Of a DNA stretch of 64,000 bases, positions 40,291-56,097 are shown piece by piece. The notes under the pieces are model-generated. The model worked only from the letters and a program-made list of their open reading frames with translations, ran no database searches and was not told where the DNA came from. The stretch's first letter is position 1; every line of letters begins with the position of its first letter. Position numbers and translations under genes: made by a program. The stretch comes from Planctomycetota bacterium (GTDB lineage Bacteria; Planctomycetota; UBA1135; UBA2386): NCBI GenBank assembly GCA_046290465.1, contig JBKAGP010000001.1:4800001-4864000 (forward strand), written 5' to 3'.

Positions 40291-41664
40291 GTGAAGGGGC
40301 TCGTCTCCATCCTCGCCCTGCTGGCGGCGTTCGCGCTGGTCGCGACGCTGTCGTGGTGCCGCAGCGATCCCGGCGTCGTCGACGCCGGCGGCAGCGGACC
40401 CTCGTCGACGCCCGCGGCAGCACGTCAGGCCGCTCTGGCTTCGGAGCACGAGCGCTCCGCGCCGACCGAACGGGTCGACGTGCACGAGGCTGCGACCGCA
40501 TACCTCGATCCGGTCGCCGTCGTCGGGGCGGGGCCGCACGTGCTCGAGGTCGAGGTCGTCGACGCGCACGGCCGCGCGGCCGTCGGCGCCGAGGTGCTGT
40601 GGCACCAACGTCCGGACGGCGAGCCGGTGGCGACGACGCGGGTGGCGGTCGACGGCCAGAGCCGCGTCGAGGTGTCGCGCGGCCTGCTGTTCGCGCGGGC
40701 GCGGCACCCGGACGTCGGCACCAGCCTGATGCTGGCGCTGTCGACCGAGCATCCGCCGGCGCGCACGCCGAGGCTGGCGCTGTTGCGTCCGTGCCGGATC
40801 GAAGGGGCGCTGTTCGACGAACACGGGGAGCCGGTCGCGGGCGCCGCGGTCCAGCTCGACGGCCGGCTCGGGATCCCGTTCGGGCATGCGGGCGAGTGCG
40901 TGACGCGCTCGTGGGTCCGCTGCGACGCGCACGGCCGCTTCGCGTTCGAGGCGAGCTACGGCACGCACGGCTGGCTGCGGTTCGTCGATCCCGAGGACGC
41001 GGGGCGCAAGGTGGACGTGGCGTTCACGGCCGGCCGCCACCAGCGCGTGCGGCTGCGCCTCGCCACCGGCGGTGAGGTCGTCGGCAGCGCGCTGCCGGCG
41101 GTGCCGGAGCAGGCCCCGACGCCGGTGACGATCGGCGGCGACGTGCGCATCGAGGCGATCGCGCGCGCGGTGCCGGTCGAGCGGCTGCAGGTGTCGTGGC
41201 GGCATCCTCTCGATCGCCCGTACCTGCTGCGCGAGGTCGAACCGAGGCCGTCGCCGCTGCAGTTGGCGAAGGCCGACCTCGACACGTTCGTGTGCTTCTT
41301 GCGGGACCCGGTCAGCGGTTGGTCGAACGGCTTGCTGCCGGGCGAGCTGGCGCGATCCGACACGGTCGCACTGCTGCCGCCGGGGCCGTTCCGCGTGTTG
41401 GTCCACCACGACGGTCGTCCCGCGCGCGGGGTCGATGTCGTGCTGCACCCCGGCGGCCCGTCGCTGCGCGCGGCGGTCGGGGTCGACGGCAACGCATACT
41501 TCGCCAAGGTGCCGGCGGGCCCGGTGCTGATCCATCTGCTGCGCGGCGTCGAACTGCTCGGCGAGCACCGCGCGCGGGTCGGTCCGGACGAACTGGCGAG
41601 CGTCGGGTTGGTCGTCGAACTGGGCGTCGAGGCGGGCGTCGAACTGCGCGGGGAGCCGCGGTGA
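40291..41664 (+). CDS. Membrane-anchored carboxypeptidase-regulatory-like (beta-sandwich repeat) protein
   Basis: VVDAHGRAAVGAEV, GALFDEHGEPVAGAAV, CDAHGRFAF. Confidence 0.72.
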   Translation: MKGLVSILALLAAFALVATLSWCRSDPGVVDAGGSGPSSTPAAARQAALASEHERSAPTERVDVHEAATAYLDPVAVVGAGPHVLEVEVVDAHGRAAVGAEVLWHQRPDGEPVATTRVAVDGQSRVEVSRGLLFARARHPDVGTSLMLALSTEHPPARTPRLALLRPCRIEGALFDEHGEPVAGAAVQLDGRLGIPFGHAGECVTRSWVRCDAHGRFAFEASYGTHGWLRFVDPEDAGRKVDVAFTAGRHQRVRLRLATGGEVVGSALPAVPEQAPTPVTIGGDVRIEAIARAVPVERLQVSWRHPLDRPYLLREVEPRPSPLQLAKADLDTFVCFLRDPVSGWSNGLLPGELARSDTVALLPPGPFRVLVHHDGRPARGVDVVLHPGGPSLRAAVGVDGNAYFAKVPAGPVLIHLLRGVELLGEHRARVGPDELASVGLVVELGVEAGVELRGEPR

Positions 41665-43208
41665 GCCTGCGCGCGCTGCTCGCCGCAGGGTTGGCGGTCC
41701 TGGTCGCGGCCGTCGCGTGGTGGTGCTCGCAGGTGCCGACCGCGGTGCCGCTGGCGTCCGGCTCGGAGCGGGGCGAGCAGCAGGTCGACGCAGCACTGGC
41801 GCGCGGCCGGCTCGATGCGGGGCGTGCCGAACGCTCGCTGCCTCACGACGCGGTCGAACGGCAGCTCGACGTGACGTGGTCGCTGCAGGTCAAGGTGGTG
41901 GACGCGCACGACGACGGCGTCGCGGGCGCGCGGGTCGAGGTCCGTTCGCAGCGCGGTGGCGAGGTCCGCTGCGAGGGGGTGTGCGACGAGACCGGCGCGG
42001 CCCGAATCGACGTGCAGGGCGACGCGGTGTGGGTGCGCTCGCGCGATGCCGACGTCGGCGCGAGCCTGGAGCGGTCGGTCGGGCGCACCGGTCGCAGCTG
42101 CACGCTGGCGCTGCGACGGCCGGTGCGCATGCACGGCTACGCCTTCGGGGTCGACGGCCAGCCGCTGGTCGATGCGCGCGTCGCGATCCGCACCGGCGAG
42201 GAGGGCATCGTCGCGCAGTTCCTCGGTGGCGACGAGCACGTGCCGGCGGTCCCGGCGACGATGCGCACCGATGCCGCGGGTGGTTTTGCGTTCGAGGTCG
42301 CCGCCGGCTGGTCCGGGGTCGCGCGCGTCGAGATCGACTCGGCGGATGGCTGGCCGGACACCGGCACCGTCGCGTTCACGGCGCGTGAGGGGGGCGAGGT
42401 GCTGGTCGGCCTGCCGGGTGCCTTCGTCGTGCGCGGCGTCATCGTCGACGGTCGCGGCGAGGTCGTCGAGGCGGTCGTCGAGGTGCACGCCGTCGACGGC
42501 AGGCAGGTGCTCGGTGACTACCGCAGGGCCGGACGCGACTTCCAGATCGGCATCGCGCCGGGGAAGCGGATCCGGCTCGTGGCGCGCGCCGACCAGGGAG
42601 AGGGCTACGCCGACGTGGTTGCGACGCGCAGCGACCCGCAGCCGCGGGTCGTGATCCGGCTCGGCGAGGGCCGTGCGACCGAACCGCCGTTCCGAGCGAT
42701 CCCCGACGGCGGCGTCGACGTCGTCGCGACCCTGCCCGACGGCAGCGCGCCGCCGGCGTTGCGCCACCGCTGGGTCGACGTCACGTTCGAGCGTTCGCTC
42801 GGGGACCTGCACCGGGTGGAGGGCGGCAGCTTCCACCTCGGCCATGCGCCGAAGCCGCCGGCGCGGCTGTGGGTCAAGTCGCGCGCCGGCGAGGTCGCGA
42901 CCTGGGTGGTCCCGGCCGGTCCGTTGCCTCGGCGCGTCGAGCTGCGTCTGCAGAAGCCGGTCGACGTCGAGATCTCGGTGCTGCACCGCGGCCGGCCGGC
43001 GCGCGGCCTCGACGTCACGCTGTTGGCCTGCGGCACGCGCGAGACCTTTGCGTTGGGGCCGAGCGGCGTCGCGACGTTCACGTGGATCTGCCCCGGCCCG
43101 GCCAAGGCGGTCGTGACGCGCGGCTGGGAGGTCGTCGGCGAGCAGCAGCTGTTCCTCGCCGCCAGCGGCAGCAACCGGGCGACCGTGCACGTCGACCTGT
43201 CGCGCTGA
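41661..43208 (+). CDS. Paralog of the preceding carboxypeptidase-regulatory-like protein
   Basis: VVDAHDDGVAGARVEV, DGQPLVDARV, TDAAGGFAF, VLHRGRPARGLDV; GTGA overlap. Confidence 0.72.
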   Translation: MSLRALLAAGLAVLVAAVAWWCSQVPTAVPLASGSERGEQQVDAALARGRLDAGRAERSLPHDAVERQLDVTWSLQVKVVDAHDDGVAGARVEVRSQRGGEVRCEGVCDETGAARIDVQGDAVWVRSRDADVGASLERSVGRTGRSCTLALRRPVRMHGYAFGVDGQPLVDARVAIRTGEEGIVAQFLGGDEHVPAVPATMRTDAAGGFAFEVAAGWSGVARVEIDSADGWPDTGTVAFTAREGGEVLVGLPGAFVVRGVIVDGRGEVVEAVVEVHAVDGRQVLGDYRRAGRDFQIGIAPGKRIRLVARADQGEGYADVVATRSDPQPRVVIRLGEGRATEPPFRAIPDGGVDVVATLPDGSAPPALRHRWVDVTFERSLGDLHRVEGGSFHLGHAPKPPARLWVKSRAGEVATWVVPAGPLPRRVELRLQKPVDVEISVLHRGRPARGLDVTLLACGTRETFALGPSGVATFTWICPGPAKAVVTRGWEVVGEQQLFLAASGSNRATVHVDLSR

Positions 43209-43326
43209 ACGGCGGCCGTTCGGCGCAGCGTGTGGGCACCGTCGGCTGTCGCGATTCCGGACGCATCGGTCTGGCGGGATGCCTGGACCTGTCCGGATCC
43301 CTGACGCAGGGTGCCGCCGAACGGCA

Positions 43327-43341
43327 TGGCACGGGACTTGG
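43327..43341 (+). promoter_or_regulatory. Possible sigma-54 -24/-12 promoter
   Basis: TGGCAC-GGGAC-TTGG versus consensus TGGCAC-N5-TTGC (mismatch at the conserved C), about 35 nt upstream of ATG 43377. Confidence 0.35.
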
Positions 43342-43376
43342 GAGGGCGGGCCTGGCCACGGGCCCCTGTTTCCAAG

Positions 43377-44870
<1,494 letters not shown>

Positions 44871-44924
44871 TCGATCGGCGCCGCACTCGCCCGCGGCGCG
44901 TCGCGGCTTCGGTCGCGTGCATCC

Positions 44925-47198
44925 ATGGACCACTTGCTCATGATCCTGGCCGTGCTCGCCACCGGCCTGGTGTTGACCGCGCTGGTGCGTCGGCGCGCTG
45001 CGGCGCGTGCCGACGTTCGCAGCCTCGACGACCGTTCGTTGGCGGTCGAGCGGGGCAGCCACCGTGCCCGCCTGCAGCACCCGAGCGTCGACCTCGCCAA
45101 CTGCATCGGCTGCGGGGCCTGCGTGCGTGCCTGCCCCGAAGAAGGCGTGTTGCAGATGGCCTACGGCCAGGCGGTGGTCGTGCACGGTGCCCGTTGCGTC
45201 GGCCACGGCCTCTGTGCGGAGGCCTGTCCGACCTCGGCGATCGCGCTGACGCTCGGCGATCTGTCGTCGCGCCGCGATCTGCCGGCGGTCGACGAACGCA
45301 ACCAGGCCATCGGTGTCGACGGGCTGTTCCTCGCCGGTGAGATCACCGGCTTCGCTCTGGTGCGGACCGCGGTGGCACACGGTGCCGCCGTGGCGGCAGC
45401 GGTGCGCGAACGCGTCGATGCGGACGCTTGCGACGACGACCTCGCCGACCTGGTCGTGCTCGGCGCGGGCCCGGCGGGGCTTTCGTGCCTACTCGCCGCC
45501 AAGGAACTCGGCCTGCACGCGGTCGGCCTCGACCAGGCGGACGAGATCGGCGGAACCGTCGCCGCCTATCCGCGGCGCAAGCTCGTAATGACGCAGCCGA
45601 TGCGTTTGCCGCTGCACGGCCGACTCGATCGACTCGAGTACACGCGGGAACAACTGGTCGAACTGTGGCAGCAGCTCGCGCGGAACCACGACCTGGACGT
45701 GCGGCTGCGTACGACCGTGCAGCGCATCGAGCGGGCGGCCGACGGCTGCTTCGACGTCGTCACCGACGCCGGTCGCCACCGCGCACGCAACGTCTGCCTG
45801 GCGGTCGGCCGACGCGGTACGCCGCGCCGCCTCGCGGTGCCCGGGGAGGAACTGGACAAGGTGGCCTACGCGCTACTGGATGCCGCGAGTTATCGCGATC
45901 GGAACATTCTGGTCGTCGGCGGTGGCGACAGCGCGGTCGAGGCAGCGCTGGCGCTGGCCGAACAACCCGGTAACGAGGTGGTGCTGAGCTACCGCCGCGA
46001 ACACTTCTCGCGCCTGAAGGCGAAGAACGAGCGGCGCATCCTGGCCGCGTTCGAGGACGGGTTGGTGGTCCCACGTCTCGGTACGGCGGTGACCGAGATC
46101 ACGCCGGCCGGCGTCGCCCTGCGCGCCTTCGGTGCGGCGCAGAGTTCCGATGCCCAAGCCGTCGCGACGGTCGCGACCGAGCGGCTGGCCAACGACCATG
46201 TGTTCGTGTTCGCCGGCGGCACACCGCCGTTCCCGATGCTGGAATCGGCTGGCGTCTCGTTCGACGCCAGCCTGCTACGGGAGCGTGAGGCGCGCGTCGA
46301 CCGCGGCGCCGGCCTGCTGGTATCGCTCACGTTCACGCTGGCCGGTCTGCTCGCACTGGTCGCCGTGCGACTCTGCTTCGCCGTCTACTACGATCTTGAG
46401 GTCGCTTGGCGTCCATCGGCGGAACTGCACCCGCTGTTGCGACCGCAGGGCGCGCTCGGCCTCGCTTGTGGCGCAGCAGCGGTGCTGCTGTTCCTGGCCA
46501 ACGTCTGCTACCTGGTGCGTCGCTCGGCGCGCATCGGGCGCAGGTTGCCCGGCACGTTGCGCAGCTGGATGAACGCGCACGTCGCGACCGGCATCGGTGC
46601 CTTCCTGTGCGCGATCGTGCACAGCGCGTACTCGCTCCGGGACAGCGCCGGTGGTCACGCGCTGCTGGCGATGGGCGTCGTCGTGGGCGCCGGCATCGTC
46701 GGGCGCTGGTTCTACGCGTTCGTCCCGCGGGCGCAGAACGGTCGACAGCAGCGCATCGAAGAACTGTCGCAGCGGGTCGCCGCGATCGCGACGGAGTGGG
46801 ACCGCGATGGACGTGGCATGGGCGTTCAGGCTCGTCGCATGGTCGAAGAACTGGTGGACCGCGCCGAGATCGGCCAGACCCTGCCCGGCCGCATCTGGGG
46901 GCTCGTGCGTAGCCAGTGGCAGCTTCGTCGTCGACTCGAACGATTTGCGGCAGCGGCACGCACCCAGGGGGTGCCCACGCACGACATCGCCCGGATGGTG
47001 CGGCTGTCGCGGCGTTCGTTCCGTCTGGCACTGCAGCTTGCCCACTACGACGACCTGCGGGCCCTGCTGTCGACGTGGCGTTGGCTGCACCGCTGGCTGG
47101 CGCTGCTGTTGGCTGCGCTACTGGTCGTACACGTCGTCTCCGCCGTCCGCTACGGCGGTATCGAGTGGCCGACACCCGGAGCGGAGGGTGGTCGATGA
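44925..47198 (+). CDS. 2x[4Fe-4S] ferredoxin + TrxB/FNR-like FAD/NAD(P)H oxidoreductase + putative diheme-b transmembrane domain fusion
   Basis: CIGCGACVRACP, CVGHGLCAEACP; GLFLAGE; GAGPAG; GGGDSA..YRR; TM His pairs WMNAH-x13-H and WRWLH-x13-H. Confidence 0.88.
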   Translation: MDHLLMILAVLATGLVLTALVRRRAAARADVRSLDDRSLAVERGSHRARLQHPSVDLANCIGCGACVRACPEEGVLQMAYGQAVVVHGARCVGHGLCAEACPTSAIALTLGDLSSRRDLPAVDERNQAIGVDGLFLAGEITGFALVRTAVAHGAAVAAAVRERVDADACDDDLADLVVLGAGPAGLSCLLAAKELGLHAVGLDQADEIGGTVAAYPRRKLVMTQPMRLPLHGRLDRLEYTREQLVELWQQLARNHDLDVRLRTTVQRIERAADGCFDVVTDAGRHRARNVCLAVGRRGTPRRLAVPGEELDKVAYALLDAASYRDRNILVVGGGDSAVEAALALAEQPGNEVVLSYRREHFSRLKAKNERRILAAFEDGLVVPRLGTAVTEITPAGVALRAFGAAQSSDAQAVATVATERLANDHVFVFAGGTPPFPMLESAGVSFDASLLREREARVDRGAGLLVSLTFTLAGLLALVAVRLCFAVYYDLEVAWRPSAELHPLLRPQGALGLACGAAAVLLFLANVCYLVRRSARIGRRLPGTLRSWMNAHVATGIGAFLCAIVHSAYSLRDSAGGHALLAMGVVVGAGIVGRWFYAFVPRAQNGRQQRIEELSQRVAAIATEWDRDGRGMGVQARRMVEELVDRAEIGQTLPGRIWGLVRSQWQLRRRLERFAAAARTQGVPTHDIARMVRLSRRSFRLALQLAHYDDLRALLSTWRWLHRWLALLLAALLVVHVVSAVRYGGIEWPTPGAEGGR

Positions 47199-49165
47199 AG
47201 CTCTGGCGTTGGCTGTTGCCAGCCTTGTCGTTGGCTGCCGTGGTCGTCTTCACCTGGTGGGACGTCTCACGGGTGCAGGCCGGTCCGGGACCTCTGCATC
47301 CGGTCCACGCGATGGCGAGCGGGCTCGACCGTGGTGCCAACTGCGCGGGCTGTCACGAGCGCGGTGCGGTGGCCGCCAGCGGTTGCATCGCATGCCACCA
47401 ACCGATCGGCAACCAGCTGAGCACGCATCGCGGCGTTCACGGATCGTTGCCGGCCGCCGCTGCGCGAGCCTGCGGGACCTGCCATTCCGATCACCACGGC
47501 GACCAGCGCCCCCTGCTGCCGACGGTCGCGTTCGTTCGCGCGGGGATCGAGCACGTCGAGGCCTACCGGCACGAACACAATGCGTTCGGGTTGGAAGGTG
47601 TGCACGAGACGCTGGCCTGCGAAGCCTGCCATCCACACGCGCGCGACGAGCATCCGCCCGCCGGTGGACGGTTCCTCGGCAAGTCGCAGCGTTGTGCCTC
47701 CTGCCACAAGGACCCTCACCGAGGTGCGTTCGGTGGCGACTGCGCCGTCTGCCACGTACAGCAGCCAGGCTGGCAGCCGGCGGCGCGCCTACGCCACGAA
47801 CGGTTCGCCTTGGAGCACGGCCACGCAGCCGTCGCCTGCACGGACTGCCACGACGCGGGCGGCGAGCGTTCCGTCTCGCAAGAACTCCAGTCGCAACTGC
47901 CGGTGCGCGTGTGTGCCGACTGCCATGCCAACCCACACGGGACCACGGCGGTTGCGGTTGCGGATCCGTCGGATTGCGCCCGGTGCCACTCGAGCGCGTC
48001 GTTCGGCGGCGTGCTGGCCGCGCCTGATGCGCACGCGGCCCTCGGTCACGAACTGCACGGTGTACACCGCGACGTGTCCTGTCGTTCGTGTCATGGAGAA
48101 CCGGGTGGGCGACCGTCCTGGGGGGCGGGATCCGCACCGACGCCGGCCGACTGTGCGGGCTGCCACGAAGCGCCGCACGATGCGGCGCTGCTGCGCGCGG
48201 CCGACGCGGTCGAGGGAGCCAACGGTTGCGCCGACTGCCACCTCGACTCCGACGCCGGCTTCGAGAGCGGTCGCATCACTCCATCGCTGCATGCGGCCAC
48301 TGGGTTTGCGCTGGCGGCGCCACACGACGAGGTCGCGTGCAGCACGTGCCATGTCGGCGCGACGCGGTCGCTCCGCTTCCCCGACAGACAACCGGGCGAC
48401 TGTCGCGTCTGCCACCCGGGGCCGCACGGAGCGCAGTTCGTGGATGGTGGATCGATGCGGGCCTGCACCGTCTGCCATGCGCGCGACCGCTGGCAGCCGC
48501 ACCACTTCGACGCCAACGCGCATGCGGCCACGTTCCCGCTGACAGGCGCGCACGACGCGGTCGCCTGCACGCTGTGCCACCAACGGGACGACGCTGGCGT
48601 GCGCAGGTTCGTCGGCACGCCGGATGCGTGCGCACACTGTCACGAGGATGTGCACACTGGGCGTTTCGATGCGGAGGGCCTGCCGCGCGAGGTCGACGGC
48701 CGGGACGGTTGCGCCCGTTGCCACGACCCCCGGGGCTTCCGGCAGCTGCGCACGCGGTTCGAGCACGGGCCATGGACGGGTCATCGGCTCGAGGGGGCGC
48801 ACGCGGAGGTTGCGTGCAGTGCCTGCCACGCACGTAGACCTGCGGGCGGCCTTGGCGCCGCTCCGGGCAAGCGTTGCAGCGACTGCCACGACGATGTGCA
48901 CCGCGGCCAGTTCGCCGTTGGCAAGGAGGCGCGGCGGGCGACCGACTGTCGGCGCTGCCACCAGCCGACCAGCTGGCCGGAGATCCGCTTCGACCACGGT
49001 CGCGACAGCCGCTTCCGGCTCGACGCGACCCACCGCCAGCTAGCGTGCTCCAGGTGCCACGTGCCGCGGCAACAGCGCGATGGCAGCACGTTCGTGCGCT
49101 ACCGACCGCTCGGACGCGAATGCGCCGACTGCCATCACTTCGGCGGCAAGGAGTCTGGGCGATGA
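47195..49165 (+). CDS. Multiheme c-type cytochrome, 23 CxxCH motifs
   Basis: Manual count of 23 CxxCH; N-terminal signal/anchor; ATGA overlaps at both ends. Confidence 0.93.
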   Translation: MKLWRWLLPALSLAAVVVFTWWDVSRVQAGPGPLHPVHAMASGLDRGANCAGCHERGAVAASGCIACHQPIGNQLSTHRGVHGSLPAAAARACGTCHSDHHGDQRPLLPTVAFVRAGIEHVEAYRHEHNAFGLEGVHETLACEACHPHARDEHPPAGGRFLGKSQRCASCHKDPHRGAFGGDCAVCHVQQPGWQPAARLRHERFALEHGHAAVACTDCHDAGGERSVSQELQSQLPVRVCADCHANPHGTTAVAVADPSDCARCHSSASFGGVLAAPDAHAALGHELHGVHRDVSCRSCHGEPGGRPSWGAGSAPTPADCAGCHEAPHDAALLRAADAVEGANGCADCHLDSDAGFESGRITPSLHAATGFALAAPHDEVACSTCHVGATRSLRFPDRQPGDCRVCHPGPHGAQFVDGGSMRACTVCHARDRWQPHHFDANAHAATFPLTGAHDAVACTLCHQRDDAGVRRFVGTPDACAHCHEDVHTGRFDAEGLPREVDGRDGCARCHDPRGFRQLRTRFEHGPWTGHRLEGAHAEVACSACHARRPAGGLGAAPGKRCSDCHDDVHRGQFAVGKEARRATDCRRCHQPTSWPEIRFDHGRDSRFRLDATHRQLACSRCHVPRQQRDGSTFVRYRPLGRECADCHHFGGKESGR

Positions 49166-50811
49166 GTCTGGGTGCCTTGCCGCGTGCGTGCATCGTCTGG
49201 TCGCTCGCCGTGGTCGGCGCACTCTCGCAGGAACAGGTGTCGACGCGGGTGGTCGCGGTGCGGGTCGTCAGCGCGACCGCAGACAGCGTCTACCTCGACC
49301 ACGGCCGCGATGTCGGAATCGCGATCGGTGACCGGGTGCTGCTGTTTCCGCCTGGCGGCGGCGACGTGGAGGTCGTCGTGCGTTCGGTCACGCACTCTTC
49401 GGCTCGCTGCGAACCGGCGCCTGGAGTCCCTGTTGCGCCCGTCGGAACGACCGGTGAAGCGGTCGTTCCGAAGACCGCGCCTCGCCAGGATCGCGGGACG
49501 CAGGCTCCGCAGCACGCGCCGTGGGAACGGCCGGTCGCGCCGCGTAGCGCGGACCAGCCGCTGCTCGTGCCGACGTTCGGCCGTCGTCCCGAGGACCGCG
49601 CGACCGAGGTTCGCGGCCGCCTGTTCGGGTTGGCACAGGCCAATCGGGATCGTCAAGGTGGCGACAGCGACTACCTGCTGCTGCGGACCGGGCTGCGGGC
49701 GACCACGGAGAACCTGTTAGGTGCGGCCGACGTCGTGCAGCTCGCCGGCGAGTGGAGCCTGCGTGACGTGTCGATCGAAGGGCGCGAAGGGCAGACCGAC
49801 CAGACTGGCCGGCTCGACCTGGCGTCGGTGTCGCTGGGCACCGAGGACTACGCGCCGGTCGGCTTGCAGGTCGGGCGGTTCCTGTCGCGGCACCTGCCCG
49901 AGATCGGGCTCGTCGACGGCGCCGAGGTCGTGCTGCGCTACGAGGGTGGGCTGCGGGTCGGGGGCGGCGTCGGTGCCTATCCGCGTCCGTATCCGGCGCG
50001 CAATGGGGGCGACGACGTCGGGGTGCATGCGTTCGTCGACTACGTGGCCGACGAGGCGCGTACGTTTGCGGTGGCGCTCGGCGTACAGAAGACCTGGCAT
50101 CGCGGCCGCGCCGATCGTGACCTGGTGGTCGCGCGCGCAGAATGGCGGCCGTCGCGGCGCTGGACGGTGCTCACCAACGCCAGGGTCGACCTCTACACGG
50201 GTGACGAAGCGATCGTGACGTCGAAGGCGGAGCTGACCGAGCTGCTGGCGCAGGTTCAGTGGCGCGGGGATGTCGTCGGGGCGTCGGTGGTCGGCTCGCA
50301 CTTCTCGTGGCCAGAACTGCTGCGTGCCGAGTACCAACTGTTGTCCGCCGAGCTGGTTCGGGACGGCGCGGTCGATCGCGTCGCGCTACGCGGTTGGTGG
50401 CGTCCGGCGGACTGGTGCACTCTTCGGCTGCGCGCCGATCGCTTCGAGGACCAGGCGCGCGACGGCACGTCGGCGCGCGCCGACGCGGAACTGCGCGGCC
50501 TGCTCGGAGAGCGCTCATCGTTGGCGATGGCGGCGTTCCAGAGCGATGGTGGCTACACGTCGGGGCCCGGCGCTTCGGCGATGCTGCGCGAGCAGTTCGC
50601 GGGAGCGCGGCTGCGGCTCGGCTACCGCTGGCATCGCTACTCACTCGACTCGCTCGTGACCGGCCCAGAGACCCGGGTCCGTGAGTCGCTGCAGTTCGGT
50701 TGTTCGTGGCAGCTGTCGGACCGGTGCGACGTCGACGTGCAGGTCGAGCGCTGGTTCGGCGATGGCCAGGACGCGTTCTCGGCCGGCTTGTTCGTGCAAT
50801 GGAGGCTGTGA
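49162..50811 (+). CDS. Putative outer-membrane beta-barrel (porin) with N-terminal small beta domain
   Basis: Signal peptide; alternating amphipathic strands; aromatic C-terminal strand GLFVQWRL; sits between two multiheme cytochromes. Confidence 0.72.
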   Translation: MSLGALPRACIVWSLAVVGALSQEQVSTRVVAVRVVSATADSVYLDHGRDVGIAIGDRVLLFPPGGGDVEVVVRSVTHSSARCEPAPGVPVAPVGTTGEAVVPKTAPRQDRGTQAPQHAPWERPVAPRSADQPLLVPTFGRRPEDRATEVRGRLFGLAQANRDRQGGDSDYLLLRTGLRATTENLLGAADVVQLAGEWSLRDVSIEGREGQTDQTGRLDLASVSLGTEDYAPVGLQVGRFLSRHLPEIGLVDGAEVVLRYEGGLRVGGGVGAYPRPYPARNGGDDVGVHAFVDYVADEARTFAVALGVQKTWHRGRADRDLVVARAEWRPSRRWTVLTNARVDLYTGDEAIVTSKAELTELLAQVQWRGDVVGASVVGSHFSWPELLRAEYQLLSAELVRDGAVDRVALRGWWRPADWCTLRLRADRFEDQARDGTSARADAELRGLLGERSSLAMAAFQSDGGYTSGPGASAMLREQFAGARLRLGYRWHRYSLDSLVTGPETRVRESLQFGCSWQLSDRCDVDVQVERWFGDGQDAFSAGLFVQWRL

Positions 50812-52532
50812 TGGGTTCCCGTTCGATCGCCACTACGTGTCTGCGTCGTGAATACATCTGCCTGTGGATCTGGTTGCTCGTGGTTGCTTGTGTCAACCTG
50901 GTGCCGCGGCAGGGATGGGACCCCGCGCGAGGCCCGGTCGTGCCGCACGATACGTTTCCGGCAGACTGCGCGCTGTGTCACGAAGGCGGCGACTGGAGCG
51001 TCGTGCGGGCGGACTTCGAGTTCGACCACGAGCGTGAGACCGGCCATGCGCTCGAGGGGGCGCATGCCGACGCCTCGTGCCTGATGTGTCACAACGACCG
51101 GGGCCCGGTGGCGATGTATGCGGCACGTGGTTGCGGCGGCTGCCATGCGGACGTTCACCAGCGGCGCCTCGGCAGCGATTGCAGCACGTGTCACGATCAG
51201 CAGACGTGGCTGCCGCGCGAACAGATCGCCAAGCACGACATGACGCGCTTCCCACTCGTCGGTGCCCACGCCTCGGCTGCGTGCTTCCGGTGCCACCCCG
51301 GAGCGCAGGTCGGCAACTTCGCCGGGACACCGGTCGAGTGCGCGGTCTGCCACGCGCAGGACTACGCGGCGACGACGGCGCCGAACCACGCGCAGGTCGG
51401 CTACGCGCAGGACTGCGAGATGTGCCACCTCGAGACGGGTTGGCAACCCGCGCGCTTCGACCATCCGGGGTCGTTTCCACTCGAACGCGGCCACTTCGGT
51501 CTGGCGTGCGCCGAGTGCCACGAGACCCCAGGTGTGTTCGCGGGGCTATCGACCGATTGCGGCAGCTGCCACGACGACGATCACCAGGCGGTGACCGATC
51601 CGAGCCACCTGGCGGCGGGCTTCGGCCTCGACTGCGAGCAGTGCCACGACACGCGGCTGTGGTCGCGCGTGACCTGGACCCATCCGACCGGGTTCGAACT
51701 GACGTTCGGCCACGCTGGTCGTCGCTGCAGCCAGTGCCACGTCGGCCAGAGCTACGTCGGCACCGGCACCGAATGCGTGTCGTGCCACTTGCCGATCTAC
51801 GAGGCGACGCAGAATCCCAGCCATGTGACGGCCGGGTTCGGGCAGGACTGTGAGAGTTGCCACAACACTGCGATCTGGCAGGGCGCGACGGTCGACCACC
51901 CGGCGAGCTTCCCGCTCGAGAACGCGCATCGCCAGGCGTGTGCGACCTGTCACCAGGTGGTCGGCACGTATGCCGGGCTGGATCCATCCTGTGCGTCGTG
52001 CCACCTGCCCGACTTCCAGACCGCGATCGAACCCAACCACGTCACCGCGGGATTCGGGACAGACTGTCAGACCTGCCATGGTACGACCGCCTGGCAGGGG
52101 GCAACGTTCGTGCACCCGGCGTCGTTCCCGCTGCAGAATGCACACCAGGTTGCCTGCGCGGCCTGCCACCAGAACGGGGTCTACCAGGGGCTCGACCCGT
52201 CGTGTGTCGCCTGCCACATGCCGAACTACCAGGCAACCAACGACCCACCGCACGGCGCGTTCCAGCTCAGCACGCAGTGCGAGCAGTGCCATGCAACGCT
52301 GACCTGGGGCACGGCGCCGGGGTGGCAGCACGCGTTCCCGATCACTTCGGGAGACCACGCCGGAATGACGTGCTTCGACTGCCACACCAATCCGGCCAAT
52401 CGCACCGCGTTCTCGTGCATCGCCTGCCACGAACACAACCAGCAGGAGATGGCGGACGAGCACGACCGCGTGTCTGGCTACCTTTGGGTGTCGGCATCGT
52501 GCTACGGCTGCCATCCGAGCGGGCAGAAGTAG
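50811..52532 (+). CDS. Multiheme c-type cytochrome lipoprotein, 22 CxxCH motifs
   Basis: Manual count of 22 CxxCH; LLVVA-C lipobox-like; GGAGG RBS at 50801; TGATG overlap. Confidence 0.92.
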   Translation: MGSRSIATTCLRREYICLWIWLLVVACVNLVPRQGWDPARGPVVPHDTFPADCALCHEGGDWSVVRADFEFDHERETGHALEGAHADASCLMCHNDRGPVAMYAARGCGGCHADVHQRRLGSDCSTCHDQQTWLPREQIAKHDMTRFPLVGAHASAACFRCHPGAQVGNFAGTPVECAVCHAQDYAATTAPNHAQVGYAQDCEMCHLETGWQPARFDHPGSFPLERGHFGLACAECHETPGVFAGLSTDCGSCHDDDHQAVTDPSHLAAGFGLDCEQCHDTRLWSRVTWTHPTGFELTFGHAGRRCSQCHVGQSYVGTGTECVSCHLPIYEATQNPSHVTAGFGQDCESCHNTAIWQGATVDHPASFPLENAHRQACATCHQVVGTYAGLDPSCASCHLPDFQTAIEPNHVTAGFGTDCQTCHGTTAWQGATFVHPASFPLQNAHQVACAACHQNGVYQGLDPSCVACHMPNYQATNDPPHGAFQLSTQCEQCHATLTWGTAPGWQHAFPITSGDHAGMTCFDCHTNPANRTAFSCIACHEHNQQEMADEHDRVSGYLWVSASCYGCHPSGQK

Positions 52533-52625
52533 CTAGGGACGGCGTGGCGATGGGAGTCTGCGCGATCGGGGCGATGGGGTAGCATTTGTGCGCGCGTGTC
52601 TAGCCGGCGCTGCGACCAACGCCCC

Positions 52626-53954
52626 ATGAACCGAGAAGAAGGCCTGATCGATCGTCCGTCGCCCGCGCGGTTCTTCGTCGACGCGGCGTTCGCTCTGGTC
52701 GCCGGCTGGCTCCTGTATCGATTCTCGTGCGTGCTGGTCGAGCCGAGCCTGATGGTCGGCGGCGGCTTCGAGGTCGACTGGCAGAAGATGTCCGTGGATC
52801 CGTTCGCGCTGCCCGGTCGCTTCCCGCACCGGATCCTGGCGCCGCTGTTGGCGTGGCTGCTCGGCTACGGCGGGGAGGGCTACCTGACGTTCACGCACGG
52901 TCTGCACGTGCTGCTGCTGGCGTCGACGTTCTTCGTGGTCTTGCGGCTGCGCGGTCGCTACCTCGATGCGCTGCTGGTCGGCGCCGTGATCGCGGTGACC
53001 GCGCCGACCCAGATGTACAAGCTGCACTGGAACGGCTACACCGACCCGATCTGCTACACGCTGTTCTTGTGGATGATCGTCGCGGCGCGGCACCCGCACG
53101 TGTTCTGGCCGCTGTTCCTGATCAACCTCACCAACCACGAACTGGCCGGCTTCCTGCTGCCGTGGTTGTTCTTCCTGCGGCGATGCGCGGACCGGCGCTG
53201 GAAGCTCGATCTGGTCTGGATCGCCGCGACCTGCGGCGCCTACGTCGCCTACTACCTGATCGTCAAGTCGAGCGCGCAGCAGCTGTTCAGCGCTGACTAC
53301 TTCCTGGCGCATCCGCTGTTCCCCGGCGGTTCGTTCGCGGTGTGGAACCTCGCGGCCGTTCACCTGGTGACGACCTTCGGCCCGATGCTCGCCGTGCTCG
53401 CGTGGCATCAGCACGGTCGGCCGCTGCCGGGTGAGCGCTGGCACCTGTGGTTAGTGCTGCTCGGCGTGGTGGTCATCTTCTGCATCGCGTTCGACTGGGC
53501 GCGGCACAGCAACCTGCTGATGCTGCCGTTGGTGATCGCGTCGGCGCGCTTCCTGCAGTCGGGCAACGCCTACCGCCTGGTGTTCGCCGGCTTGATCGGG
53601 CTGACGTTGTTCCTGTTCTGGCTGGTGCCGCCGTGGTCGCCGACCGCGTGGCCGACCAACGTCGTCGTCGAGGGCCCGGTGGAATGGCGGCAGGAGTTCA
53701 ACCCGACCAACCATCCCGCCAAGCGCCTGATGATCCAGTCGGGTCTGGTCGTGCCCTATCCGGGCGCGAAGGGGCTGAACATCGGCTTCGGCCCGCTGTC
53801 GTCGGCGCTGCAGGGGTGGCTGCCGGTCGTGTGGCGCACGTTGCTCGTCTGCCACCTGATCGGCGTGGCAATCTGGATCGGCGGATGGCTGCTGACGCGT
53901 CTGCGCCGGTTCGCGCCGCCGCCTCCGAACGGCCACCTGGCCAGCGGTTCGTGA
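52626..53954 (+). CDS. Polytopic membrane protein (possibly GT-C-like)
   Basis: About 10 TM helices; HRILAPLL, YTDP, NHE, DWAR motifs; function uncertain. Confidence 0.7.
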   Translation: MNREEGLIDRPSPARFFVDAAFALVAGWLLYRFSCVLVEPSLMVGGGFEVDWQKMSVDPFALPGRFPHRILAPLLAWLLGYGGEGYLTFTHGLHVLLLASTFFVVLRLRGRYLDALLVGAVIAVTAPTQMYKLHWNGYTDPICYTLFLWMIVAARHPHVFWPLFLINLTNHELAGFLLPWLFFLRRCADRRWKLDLVWIAATCGAYVAYYLIVKSSAQQLFSADYFLAHPLFPGGSFAVWNLAAVHLVTTFGPMLAVLAWHQHGRPLPGERWHLWLVLLGVVVIFCIAFDWARHSNLLMLPLVIASARFLQSGNAYRLVFAGLIGLTLFLFWLVPPWSPTAWPTNVVVEGPVEWRQEFNPTNHPAKRLMIQSGLVVPYPGAKGLNIGFGPLSSALQGWLPVVWRTLLVCHLIGVAIWIGGWLLTRLRRFAPPPPNGHLASGS

Positions 53955-54039
53955 GTGCTGTCCGCCGCGATCTGGCTGGTCGGTAGGTGGGTGGGGCGTA
54001 GGGTTTTGTCGCGGTGCGGATGTGTCCGATACTGGCGGG

Positions 54040-56097
54040 ATGACCGATGTGATGGCCGGATGGACCTCGGACAACCCGTTCTCGACTCCCAGTGTGCTGC
54101 CGTTCGAGGCTCCGGCGTTCGATCGGATCCGTGAAGAGCACTACCTGCCGGCGTTCCGTGCCGGTATGCAGCGGCACCTCGAGGAGGTGCGCGCGATCGC
54201 CGGCAGCGACGAGGCGCCGACGTTCGCCAACACGGTCGAGGCGATGGAACGGGCCGGCGACGTGCTCGAGCGCACCGCGCGGGTGTTCTTCAACCTGACC
54301 GGTTCGACGACGACCGACGGGCTGCAGAAGATCCAGGCGGAGGTCGCGCCGGAGCTCGCGGCGCACAGCGACTCGATCTGGCTGGACGCGCAGCTGTTCG
54401 CGCGCGTGCAGGAGGTCTACGACCGACGCGACGCGCTGCAGCCGGAGGAGAAGCAGCTGACCGAGCGCTACCACCTGTCGTTCGTCCGTCACGGCGCGCG
54501 ACTCGACGAGGCGCAGCAGCAGCGCATCCGGGAGATCAACGAGCGCAGCTCGCAGCTGACGACCAGGTTTCAGGAGTGCCTGCTCAAGGAGACCCAGGCG
54601 CTCGGCGTGCTCGTCGACGACAAGGCGGAGCTCGCCGGCCTCAGCGACGGCGACGTCTCCGCCGCCGCGGACGCGGCCAAGGCCGCCGGTCACGAGGGCA
54701 AGTACCTGATCACGATCGAGCTGCCGACGTCGCAGGGGATCCTGTCGTCGCTGGCCGATCGCGACACGCGCCGCCGCGTCTACAACGCGTCGATCTCGCG
54801 CTGCAACCGCGACAACGAGCACGACACCAAGGAGATCGCCCGGGAGCTGTGCGCGCTGCGCGCCGAACGCGCCGCGCTGCTCGGCTACGAGACCCACGGT
54901 CACTACGTGCTCGCCGACGAGACTGCCGGCACCCCGGACGCGGTGCGCGAGATGATGGGCAGCATGACCGCGGCGATCGTCGACAAGGCGAAGGCCGAGG
55001 CCGCCGAGCTGCAGAAGCACCTCGACGAACATCTGCCGGGCACGCAGCTCGAGCCGTGGGACTGGGCCTGGGTCGCCGAGCAGGTGCGCCAGGCCCGCTA
55101 CGACCTCGACGAGAACGAGGTGAAGCAGTTCTTCGAGTTCGAGCGGGTCCTGACCGACGGCCTGTTCTTCATGGCCGAGCAGCTCTACGGCGTGACGATG
55201 AAGGAGCGCACCGACCTGCCGGTCTACCACGACGACGTGCGCGTGTTCGAGATGTTCGACGACGCCGGGGAGTCGATCGCGTTGTTCTATGCCGACTACT
55301 ACGCGCGGCCGAGCAAGCGCGGCGGAGCCTGGATGAGCAGCTTCGTCGACCAGTCGACGCTGCACGGCCACAAGCCGGTCGTCGTCAACGTGATGAACAT
55401 CAAGAAGCCGAGCCAGGGTCCGACCCTGATGAGCTTCGACGAGGTCACCACGATGTTCCACGAGTTCGGCCACGGCGTGCACGGCATGTTCAGCCAGGTG
55501 CGCTTCCCGATGCTGTCGGGTACCTCGGTGCCGCGCGACTTCGTCGAGTTTCCGTCGCAGTTCCACGAGGACTTCGCGTTCGACCCGGCAGTGCTGGAGC
55601 GCTGCGCGAAGCACTACCGGACCGGGGACGCGATGCCCGACGAACTGCTGGCCAAGGTCAAGCGCGCCCGCAAGTTCGGCCAGGGCTTCGCGTCGCTCGA
55701 GTACATCGCCGCCGCCTGGCTCGACCTCGCCTGGCACTCGTTGCCGAACGGTACCCAGGTCGACGACGTCGCCGCGTTCGAGCGCCAGGCGCTGCAGGCC
55801 GCGGGTGTGCACATGGAGCTGGTGCCGCCGCGCTACAAGAGCACCTACTTCGCGCACATCTGGCCGGGCGGCTACTCGGCTGGCTACTACGCCTACCTGT
55901 GGAGCGAGGCGCTGGCCGCCGACGGCTTCGCCGGCTGCATGGAGAACGGCGGCATGACGCGCGAGAACGGCCAGCGCTTCCGCGACGCGGTCCTGTGCCG
56001 CGGACTCACCCAGGAACCGCTCGCCCAGTTCCGCTCCTTCCGCGGCCGCGAACTGGACACCACTGCCGTCCTCGAACGCCGCGGCATCGGTTCGTAG
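54040..56097 (+). CDS. dcp: M3 family metallopeptidase (peptidyl-dipeptidase Dcp-like)
   Basis: NPF..PS.LPFEAPAFDRI, KRGGAWM, TMFHEFGHGVH, RDFVEFPSQ, GYSAGYYAYLW. Confidence 0.93.
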   Translation: MTDVMAGWTSDNPFSTPSVLPFEAPAFDRIREEHYLPAFRAGMQRHLEEVRAIAGSDEAPTFANTVEAMERAGDVLERTARVFFNLTGSTTTDGLQKIQAEVAPELAAHSDSIWLDAQLFARVQEVYDRRDALQPEEKQLTERYHLSFVRHGARLDEAQQQRIREINERSSQLTTRFQECLLKETQALGVLVDDKAELAGLSDGDVSAAADAAKAAGHEGKYLITIELPTSQGILSSLADRDTRRRVYNASISRCNRDNEHDTKEIARELCALRAERAALLGYETHGHYVLADETAGTPDAVREMMGSMTAAIVDKAKAEAAELQKHLDEHLPGTQLEPWDWAWVAEQVRQARYDLDENEVKQFFEFERVLTDGLFFMAEQLYGVTMKERTDLPVYHDDVRVFEMFDDAGESIALFYADYYARPSKRGGAWMSSFVDQSTLHGHKPVVVNVMNIKKPSQGPTLMSFDEVTTMFHEFGHGVHGMFSQVRFPMLSGTSVPRDFVEFPSQFHEDFAFDPAVLERCAKHYRTGDAMPDELLAKVKRARKFGQGFASLEYIAAAWLDLAWHSLPNGTQVDDVAAFERQALQAAGVHMELVPPRYKSTYFAHIWPGGYSAGYYAYLWSEALAADGFAGCMENGGMTRENGQRFRDAVLCRGLTQEPLAQFRSFRGRELDTTAVLERRGIGS

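Follow-up and report, generated by a model that had tools for sequence, protein, structure and literature searches.

By what route do electrons reach, or leave, a multiheme wire that runs through the outer membrane? The question is raised by four overlapping genes, here called A to D, at positions 44925–52532 (+ strand) of a 64,000-nucleotide stretch of a Planctomycetota genome (assembly GCA_046290465.1, contig JBKAGP010000001.1, positions 4,800,001 to 4,864,000), referred to as the window. A sequence-only reading of the window had proposed that they could form a conduit from cytoplasmic NAD(P)H to the cell surface that dispenses with quinones. On the evidence of domains and homology, genes A–D are a PCC3-type porin–cytochrome system, a variant in which the inner-membrane protein (IMP) is fused to a ferredoxin and a flavoprotein, and this flavoprotein is, by its co-occurrence, a general partner of the PCC3 IMP. 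The reading that we favor, with a rough probability of 0.55, is that the system would export NADPH electrons outward, independently of quinones and without conserving energy, by way of flavin adenine dinucleotide (FAD), Fe–S clusters, two b hemes and the cytochromes B and D. The features on which the argument draws are as follows.

44925–47198, + strand: gene A, 757 aa, with an N-terminal membrane anchor, a two-cluster ferredoxin, an FAD/NAD(P)H domain of the thioredoxin reductase (TrxR)/ferredoxin–NADP+ reductase (FNR) type and a five-helix membrane domain with two predicted b hemes (the PCC3 IMP); from the open reading frame, Pfam and a model
45081–45245, + strand: ferredoxin domain of A, with one CxxCxxCxxxCP and one CxGHxxCxxxC motif (His for Cys); from Pfam Fer4 and motif counts
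45276–46274, + strand: flavoprotein domain of A, with GGGDSA and YR motifs and without the CxxC of TrxR; from fold search and motif counts
46308–47153, + strand: membrane domain of A, five helices with two Wx3Hx13H motifs (H552/H566 and H722/H736); from conservation and model
47195–49165, + strand: gene B, 656 aa, a 23-heme cytochrome c with an N-terminal hydrophobic anchor, predicted to be a periplasm-spanning wire; from motif count and homology
49162–50811, + strand: gene C, 549 aa, a small N-terminal beta domain and a predicted 22-strand outer-membrane barrel; from model and fold match
50811–52532, + strand: gene D, 573 aa, a 22-heme lipoprotein with lipobox Cys27 at 50889–50891; from lipobox conservation, motif count and complex model

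All four reading frames translate open over these coordinates. The junctions are ATGA at 47195–47198 (A/B) and 49162–49165 (B/C), and TGATG at 50809–50813 (C/D). The 45 c-heme motifs of the sequence-only reading were recovered as 23 CxxCH motifs in B and 22 in D, which take up 46 of the 46 Cys residues of B and 44 of the 47 of D, at 28.5 and 26.0 residues per heme, respectively. The layout is not an assembly artefact, because an independent second assembly spans 42002–54500 in a single contig, with 99 substitutions and one indel that falls outside genes A–D. Pfam, folds and the lipobox also agree with the anatomy first proposed (a flavoprotein–Fe–S–cytochrome b fusion, a periplasmic cytochrome, a barrel and a lipoprotein), the one refinement being the His that replaces Cys in the second Fe–S motif.

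In protein A, Pfam places a 4Fe–4S domain at residues 53–107 and a pyridine nucleotide-disulphide oxidoreductase domain at residues 175–450. Hydropathy and an AlphaFold model (predicted local distance difference test, pLDDT, 82; predicted template modelling score, pTM, 0.62) together place at the N terminus a helix with Arg residues after it, then the ferredoxin, the flavoprotein and five more helices; by the positive-inside rule the soluble part would face the cytoplasm. Motifs were counted over the 90 loci that have both domains, the window, its paralog and one duplicate included. The ferredoxin motif CxxCxxCxxxCP is found in 68 of them and CxGHxxCxxxC in 82. The flavoprotein domain, which dominated fold searches run with the whole of protein A, has its nearest solved folds in Bdr/YpdA, TrxR and the TrxR-type FNRs (Z 20.8, root-mean-square deviation (rmsd) 7.5, 264 residues aligned), and carries GGGDSA in 88 of the 90 loci and YR in 85, the latter in this fold being what we take to be a marker of NADPH use. 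By cut-off the domain belongs to none of these three families. Two identities were considered for it and rejected: thioredoxin reductase, since the redox CxxC that precedes the NADPH motif occurs in 0 of 90 loci, and Bdr/YpdA, by the family cut-off (TIGR04018, 120.7 against 339.9 bits). Residues 121–161 weakly match the C-terminal segment of GltD and TrxR chains (E 0.04–0.6) and hold an AGE motif in 90 of 90 loci; this tentatively suggests a circularly permuted flavoprotein, with the TrxR-type terminal segment moved to the front.

The membrane domain of A displays the two Hx13H heme pairs of the NOX/MsrQ ferric-reductase superfamily, with a weak match to the ferric-reductase domain PF01794 that stays below the cut-off (E 1.1e-4, 22.6 bits against 28). 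Its four predicted heme-ligand His residues show no variation, in 94 of 94 close rows and in 42 of 42 distant ones, and both Wx3Hx13H motifs, in the window at A residues 548–566 and 718–736 in helices 3 and 5, are kept in 87 of the 90 loci. The motif of the fourth transmembrane helix (TM4) is AGxxG in A; among the 90 loci SG is seen in 36, TG in 46 and AG in 9, both Gly being kept while the Ser varies.

This set of parts recalls PCC3 as defined by He et al. 2017 (PMC5566968), in whose available text the system comprises a porin, one multiheme cytochrome (MHC) outside the cell and another in the periplasm, and a ~300-aa IMP that has five helices, a pair of WX3HX13H motifs and an SGXXG, and is modelled as linked to the quinone pool. 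All four parts are present at the locus, with the IMP as the final 290 residues of the 757-aa fusion rather than a stand-alone protein of ~300 aa, and the heme densities of B and D fall within the PCC3 range of 22–39 residues per heme. Homology was measured against Pseudomonadota loci of PCC3 layout (the named proteins of Sideroxydans ES-1 were compared through five Slit_0866 peptides only) and reaches E 1e-16 for the IMP, 4e-39 for B and 3e-56 for D, the best BLAST matches of B being the IMP-adjacent 21–27-heme proteins. Barrel C matches the proteobacterial barrels of this layout in profile–profile comparison (P 90.8, E 1.2e-6); hmmsearch with the proteobacterial barrel profile against the barrels of this family gave no significant match (best E 0.015).

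The sequence-only reading, which knew of no experimental characterization of this architecture, missed that the four-part layout already has a literature under the name PCC3 and that a sister operon, ptd/PCC4, with an FAD/NAD(P) oxidoreductase, has been published. In the open-text literature, as distinct from figures, picture tables and subscription papers, no text was found that links this flavoprotein to PCC3 or describes the fusion. A word search of the eight supplementary files of PMC5566968 did not find the flavoprotein either; it covered text rather than figures and picture tables, and Figure 6 or Tables 3–5 might show the gene. Table 6 of the same paper lists porin-less clusters of an MHC, an IMP and an 'other redox protein', and the accessible parts of Hoover et al. 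2023 (PMC10734462) and of the CL21 preprint handle PCC3 as four genes, without a functional test.

The three remaining genes would form the wire. All inspected orthologs of B open with a hydrophobic anchor, and the number of hemes is 20, 23 or 26 at almost every locus, as would suit a periplasm span of fixed length. By sequence against the PDB, B gave short c7-type matches and nothing longer. Gene C is without a match in Pfam or NCBIfam. Its model is a 22-strand barrel (pLDDT 86.8), as had been expected for 49162–50811, and its fold matches are TonB-type outer-membrane barrels (top Z 17.4, rmsd 4.8, 390 aligned) and MtrB (6r2q_B; Z 13.4, rmsd 5.1, 348 aligned). The comparison with MtrAB that the sequence-only reading had called for thus yielded a barrel fold that aligns with MtrB, but no sequence-family match.

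For gene D, the lipobox pattern is passed by 41 of 44 loci, and every one of the 42 aligned rows, which had been pre-selected for the lipobox, keeps its Cys. The number of hemes in D ranges across loci from 6 to 43; very large second cytochromes, with 55–62 CxxCH motifs, are seen at five loci (L166, L176, L168, L076 and L087). A complex predicted from C residues 24–549 and D residues 27–316 scored 0.72 against 0.00 for the best control, with runs agreeing in at least 74% of contacts and a partner pLDDT of at least 74; of solved complexes, 116 of 157 reach the mark set for this score, and of mismatched pairs, 2 of 215. The interface spans D hemes 1–7 and contacts C on its periplasmic turns as well as on its extracellular loops; the region of heme 7 lies at loop 497–499, the sides of the barrel being assigned from standard barrel topology. 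Thus, D appears to be anchored on the periplasmic side and to thread barrel C, with hemes 1–7 inside the barrel, while hemes 8–22 would lie outside the cell. The 7-heme minimal versions of D correspond to the barrel-embedded part. Two cytochromes confined to the periplasm, which had been named beforehand as the outcome that would count against a conduit, is not the arrangement in this model.

The link between the flavoprotein and the conduit rests on phyletic distribution. A GTDB scan with the fusion alignment gave at least 599 stretches, 584 of them confirmed; the locus counts come from the best 80 of these (at least 584), a set biased to the flavoprotein. The fused flavoprotein–IMP is present in 58 of the 80, and 46 of these 58 carry the full set of two cytochromes and a barrel, as the expected co-conservation required, with 10 more ending at a contig edge and 2 without them. 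Among the 22 non-fused loci, 15 have a separate IMP, 4 have a barrel or cytochromes but are cut, and 3 have nothing more. Taxon labels in this set include Zixibacteria, Calditrichota, Ignavibacteria and Bacteroidota. Because of its bias, the test was reversed, starting from the IMP. Across the 301 genomes of one Pseudomonadota order (searches scored 6–8 candidates per genome), the IMP was found in 19 (1e-30) and the flavoprotein in 19 (1e-60), with 18 in common; the flavoprotein gene stands head-to-head with that of the IMP in 16 of the shared genomes, after the barrel in one and 7 kb beyond in another. One of the exceptions (G961) has a different IMP subfamily. In a second phylum, counted by hand, 33 of 114 genomes have the IMP, and 30 of 36 IMP matches have the flavoprotein within 8 kb.

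Distant IMPs adjoin other flavoproteins: NAD(P)H flavoproteins of the FAD_binding_6/NAD_binding_1/Fer2 type in 4 of 4 scanned, and, for other distant IMPs, relatives of a cyclic nucleotide-binding (cNMP)/Fe–S type in 12 of 12 by profile and 2 of 2 scanned. At two Pseudomonadota loci (L159 and L160) a cNMP-bearing flavoprotein is independently fused to a distant IMP. A quick tree puts 55 of 56 fused IMPs in one starred clade. The tree distances of IMP and flavoprotein go together (r 0.92, and 0.76 among the 34 split pairs), which shared ancestry explains and which we do not use as proof of co-evolution. A search for shorter IMP homologs returned mostly fragments. Taken with the fusion, this co-occurrence makes NAD(P)H input, one half of the original claim, a well supported inference; the other half, independence of quinones, goes further than these data do. 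There is a precedent for such an input: according to the parts of the sources available, a cytosolic NADH oxidoreductase is the electron source of MsrQ, whose membrane superfamily the IMP would share (PMC12525009), and MsrQ-like systems have been proposed to use NAD(P)H (PMC8238504).

In the mechanism that we favor, NADPH would reduce the FAD of protein A, and electrons would leave the FAD one by one, through the Fe–S clusters of A, to its two b hemes, which would be stacked so as to cross the inner membrane, with H552/H722 on the inside and H566/H736 on the outside. From A they would pass to the membrane-anchored 23-heme B, across the periplasm, and on to lipoprotein D, whose hemes 1–7 inside barrel C and remaining hemes outside would serve as the outlet. 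The flow would run outward and bypass the quinone pool, and the output would reduce extracellular Fe(III) or other oxidants, or vent surplus reductant. An electron that leaves while its proton stays inside spends proton-motive force, as in NADPH oxidases, and the system would therefore not be an energy-conserving respiratory chain. Outward electron flow is aided by the proton-motive force and spends it, and inward reduction of NADP+ needs a donor of very low potential. We expect a non-respiratory reductive output, with Fe(III) or oxidants as the first acceptors to consider. The genes, motifs, folds, fusion and co-occurrence that enter this scheme are observed, and its barrel and C–D complex are modelled. 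From these we infer cofactor binding, the preference for NADPH, the A–B and B–D contacts, the direction and the acceptor.

Several points weigh against this reading. In the model of A, the ferredoxin domain has low confidence (pLDDT 35–60) and the packing of the domains is uncertain (pTM 0.62). Among the 48 fused loci with enough flank, two (L083 and L107) have no cytochrome or barrel within ~10 kb downstream; one genome of the Pseudomonadota order (G947) holds a broken flavoprotein without an IMP; 3 of the 33 IMP genomes of the second phylum have no flavoprotein match; and the counts overstate independence because the genomes are kin. The passing score of the C–D pair may echo its likeness to the solved MtrAB, D is the sole partner modelled in barrel C, and an extracellular D, which the lipobox and the threading model support, is opposed by its sequence, which matches PCC3 cytochromes of the periplasmic type at E about 1e-50 and those of the extracellular type at 1e-25 or weaker. 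The 45 hemes would be a heavy iron cost if the purpose were iron uptake, and periplasmic cytochromes of the host could also receive electrons from its quinol oxidase of the NrfD type. Further, MsrQ also binds ubiquinone (PMC12525009, available text), so that quinones may be involved even where a flavoprotein is the partner.

The cultured iron oxidizer Sideroxydans ES-1 bears on several of these issues. Its PCC3 clusters are Slit_0867–0870 and Slit_1446–1449 (PMC8788666, as far as accessible). Slit_0866, a 430-aa FAD oxidoreductase, flanks an ES-1 PCC3 porin cluster, and its five peptides match the flavoprotein family; the main texts of the ES-1 papers, in the parts available, leave it unmentioned. 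The better-expressed cluster, Slit_1446–1449, has no adjacent flavoprotein (Slit_1445 is an HD hydrolase and Slit_1450 an aldolase), a further point against outward export from NADPH.

The alternative that survives best, although we consider it unlikely, is the published quinone-linked model (PMC5566968, in its available text), in which electrons move between the two-heme domain and the quinone pool. The flavoprotein would form a branch or a side inlet from NAD(P)H to quinone, and cells would use the wire to respire with acceptors or donors outside them. The best PDB matches of the IMP profile, which cover 27 residues of a heme helix in cytochrome b6 (E 0.002), would suit this model, as would the ubiquinone bound by MsrQ and the ES-1 cluster without a neighboring flavoprotein. 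However, it leaves unaccounted for the near one-to-one pairing with the flavoprotein, the fusion in Planctomycetota and the replacement by flavoproteins of another fold in distant subfamilies, and the quinone of MsrQ is itself argued not to be its donor (PMC12525009, available text).

Distinctly improbable, in our estimate, is inward flow, in which a low-potential outside donor (a reduced mineral, a metal or a partner cell) would deliver electrons to the FAD and so yield NADPH or reduced ferredoxin, taking the place of reverse electron transport. FNRs of the TrxR type are able to form NADPH, but an electron that moves inward to NADP+ (about -0.32 V) has the membrane potential against it. PCC3 is found in Fe(II) oxidizers, as the available sources have it, and in the ES-1 data seen Slit_0866 is up on late magnetite versus Fe-citrate (log2 +2.35 and +2.55, from 4 unique peptides), as is the porin Slit_1449 on late magnetite (+1.37 and +1.92). 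Yet the PCC3 transcripts of ES-1 drop on Fe(II) (PMC8788666, same parts), which speaks against an Fe(II)-uptake role, the study's authors describe the PCC3 proteins as similarly abundant from sample to sample, and these proteins are down in early aged magnetite; the changes on magnetite run both ways, with few peptides behind them. Aerobes are also among the carriers, e.g., the window host and Emticicia oligotrophica.

We set aside as very improbable a system that delivers no electrons to an acceptor outside, whether it acts as a heme capacitor, senses redox state or makes superoxide, and likewise a flavoprotein that works next to the wire as a Bdr/YpdA-like disulfide reductase: the nearest solved relative, Bdr/YpdA, likewise lacks CxxC, the external heme number varies widely, up to 43, and members of related clusters carry cNMP and FHA regulatory domains, but the TIGR04018 score is far under its cut-off, ferredoxin and diheme domains are fused to the flavoprotein, and a dedicated barrel is modelled with hemes threaded through it.

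The nearest named relatives of the host are Planctomycetota. Its genome (6.59 Mb, 94% complete) has three COX1-family matches, two NrfD and one CcsA, and no NapC/NirT/CymA was found in it, a point in favor of the NADPH-fed reading. Nine sequencing runs hold at least half of the stretch; they include algal, marine and aquaculture metagenomes, one of which may be the source. With heme-copper oxidases in the host and such samples around it, respiratory metal reduction is not an obvious use. A second copy of the operon lies at G000:C1:5002764–5012274 (L186), with a fusion, a 23-heme cytochrome, a barrel, a 7-heme lipoprotein and an extra 11-heme protein; its GC content at third codon positions (GC3) is typical, and it belongs to another branch of the IMP tree. 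A PCC4/Ptd-like cluster at G000:C1:2612000–2631500 (L185) comprises a distant IMP, a cNMP/Fe–S protein, an FAD/NAD(P) oxidoreductase and 10-, 15- and 17-heme proteins, several of its proteins carrying FHA domains.

At the locus itself, the GC3 of genes A–D is 0.80–0.84. Flanking genes have 0.90–0.95, and the median over 3289 open reading frames of the genome, a crude set, is 0.94; the low values possibly mark a laterally acquired block. Upstream on the same strand (40291–44870) lie two Ig/carboxypeptidase-regulatory-like proteins and an FG-GAP repeat protein, ending 54 bases before gene A. Neither the upstream FG-GAP gene nor the downstream membrane genes are co-conserved in the 80 loci (2 weak FG-GAP matches, none adjacent). 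A scan for Fur and FNR boxes gave no consistent signal in 16 divergent intergenic regions; no sigma-70 promoter was found at the locus, and terminator-like sites are at chance level. No RNA dataset is among the runs listed as containing the stretch, and two poly(A) RNA runs yielded 0 reads, a figure with no bearing on expression.

Related modules occur on plasmids. The 100-kb pEMTOL02 of the cultured Emticicia oligotrophica (L111) carries the whole split system on a mobile element, with IMP, flavoprotein, 23-heme and 40-heme cytochromes, barrel and its own ccsA. Plasmids of Methylophaga, Alteromonas and Qipengyuania (L112–L114) hold a porin-less module of a 2Fe–2S protein, a short IMP and a 7-heme cytochrome, adjoining hydrogenase, ccm or copper-resistance genes, and weak IMP matches are seen on two Legionella plasmids. 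A distant barrel homolog (P0220 cluster) groups with Poly30_12740 of the cultured planctomycete Saltatorellus ferox.

PCC3 has long been listed as a candidate marker of iron oxidation or respiration. Should NAD(P)H be what feeds it, metagenome surveys have assumed a wrong direction and purpose for it; extracellular electron transfer would then reach aerobic heterotrophs on algae, and the matter would be open to direct testing in cultured Sideroxydans ES-1 (Slit_0866) and E. oligotrophica DSM 17448. Bioelectrochemistry could also make use of such a cassette, in which four genes would link NADPH to an electrode. More tentatively, with a little less than even odds, we propose that PCC3 at large may be a five-part quinone-independent NADPH-to-surface conductor (FAD, 2 Fe–S clusters, 2 heme b, 30–80 heme c) of many Gram-negative phyla, aerobes included: a third input class for porin–cytochrome conduits, akin to NOX in exporting an electron to the outside, of which the planctomycete fusion would be the portable four-gene form, with one lipoprotein as MtrA plus MtrC.

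How does this compare with known systems? In MsrQ, MsrQ-like systems and bacterial NOX (PMC12525009 and PMC8238504, available parts), an NAD(P)H flavoprotein likewise feeds a heme-b domain of the ferric-reductase superfamily and electrons move outward, but the acceptors are periplasmic enzymes, flavinylated proteins or O2, the dehydrogenase fold is another one, and there is no outer-membrane multiheme wire. MtrCAB of Shewanella and Pcc of Geobacter share a heme wire through an outer-membrane barrel, with MtrB aligning to barrel C; unlike the window operon, these conduits are fed by quinol dehydrogenases (CymA/ImcH/CbcL) through soluble shuttles (PMC7096707, as available), and, in contrast to MtrCAB, lipoprotein D itself seems to thread the barrel. 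An assignment to MtrAB/MtoAB/PioAB was rejected, with TIGR03508 at 45 bits against a cut-off of 192 and C without a family match to MtrB or PioB.

Closer is PCC4/ptd, in which, according to the available parts of PMC5566968 (section 16) and bioRxiv 10.1101/2023.11.21.568154, a porin, multiheme cytochromes, a ferric-reductase-like membrane protein, an FAD/NAD(P) oxidoreductase and an Fe–S protein are clustered, also in Planctomycetes; the preprint calls the function of its ptdABCDEFG operon 'completely unknown'. PCC4/ptd differs in its small cytochromes (4, 5 and 10 hemes), its cNMP-binding Fe–S protein and its unfused genes, and those parts propose no NAD(P)H-to-surface mechanism. The identity of the window operon with PCC4/Ptd was rejected on its 23 and 22 heme motifs and the lack of a cNMP domain. 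A 2026 peat preprint, in the part available, describes other architectures.

The closest counterpart is PCC3. The window operon departs from it in the fusion of the IMP to a ferredoxin–flavoprotein, which the available texts of PMC5566968 and PMC10734462 do not mention for PCC3, in its gene order (IMP–cytochrome–barrel–cytochrome), in a second cytochrome that is a lipoprotein modelled inside the barrel, in AGxxG rather than SGxxG in TM4, and in its host, the described PCC3 hosts being Proteobacteria. It shares with PCC3 an IMP of five helices and two Wx3Hx13H motifs, a periplasmic 21–27-heme cytochrome, a large second cytochrome, a barrel and a density of 26–29 residues per heme. Its 23 hemes, 22 strands and 22 hemes stand next to the 24 hemes, 22 strands and 22 hemes of the PCC3 of Leptothrix cholodnii SP-6 (PMC5566968, available text).

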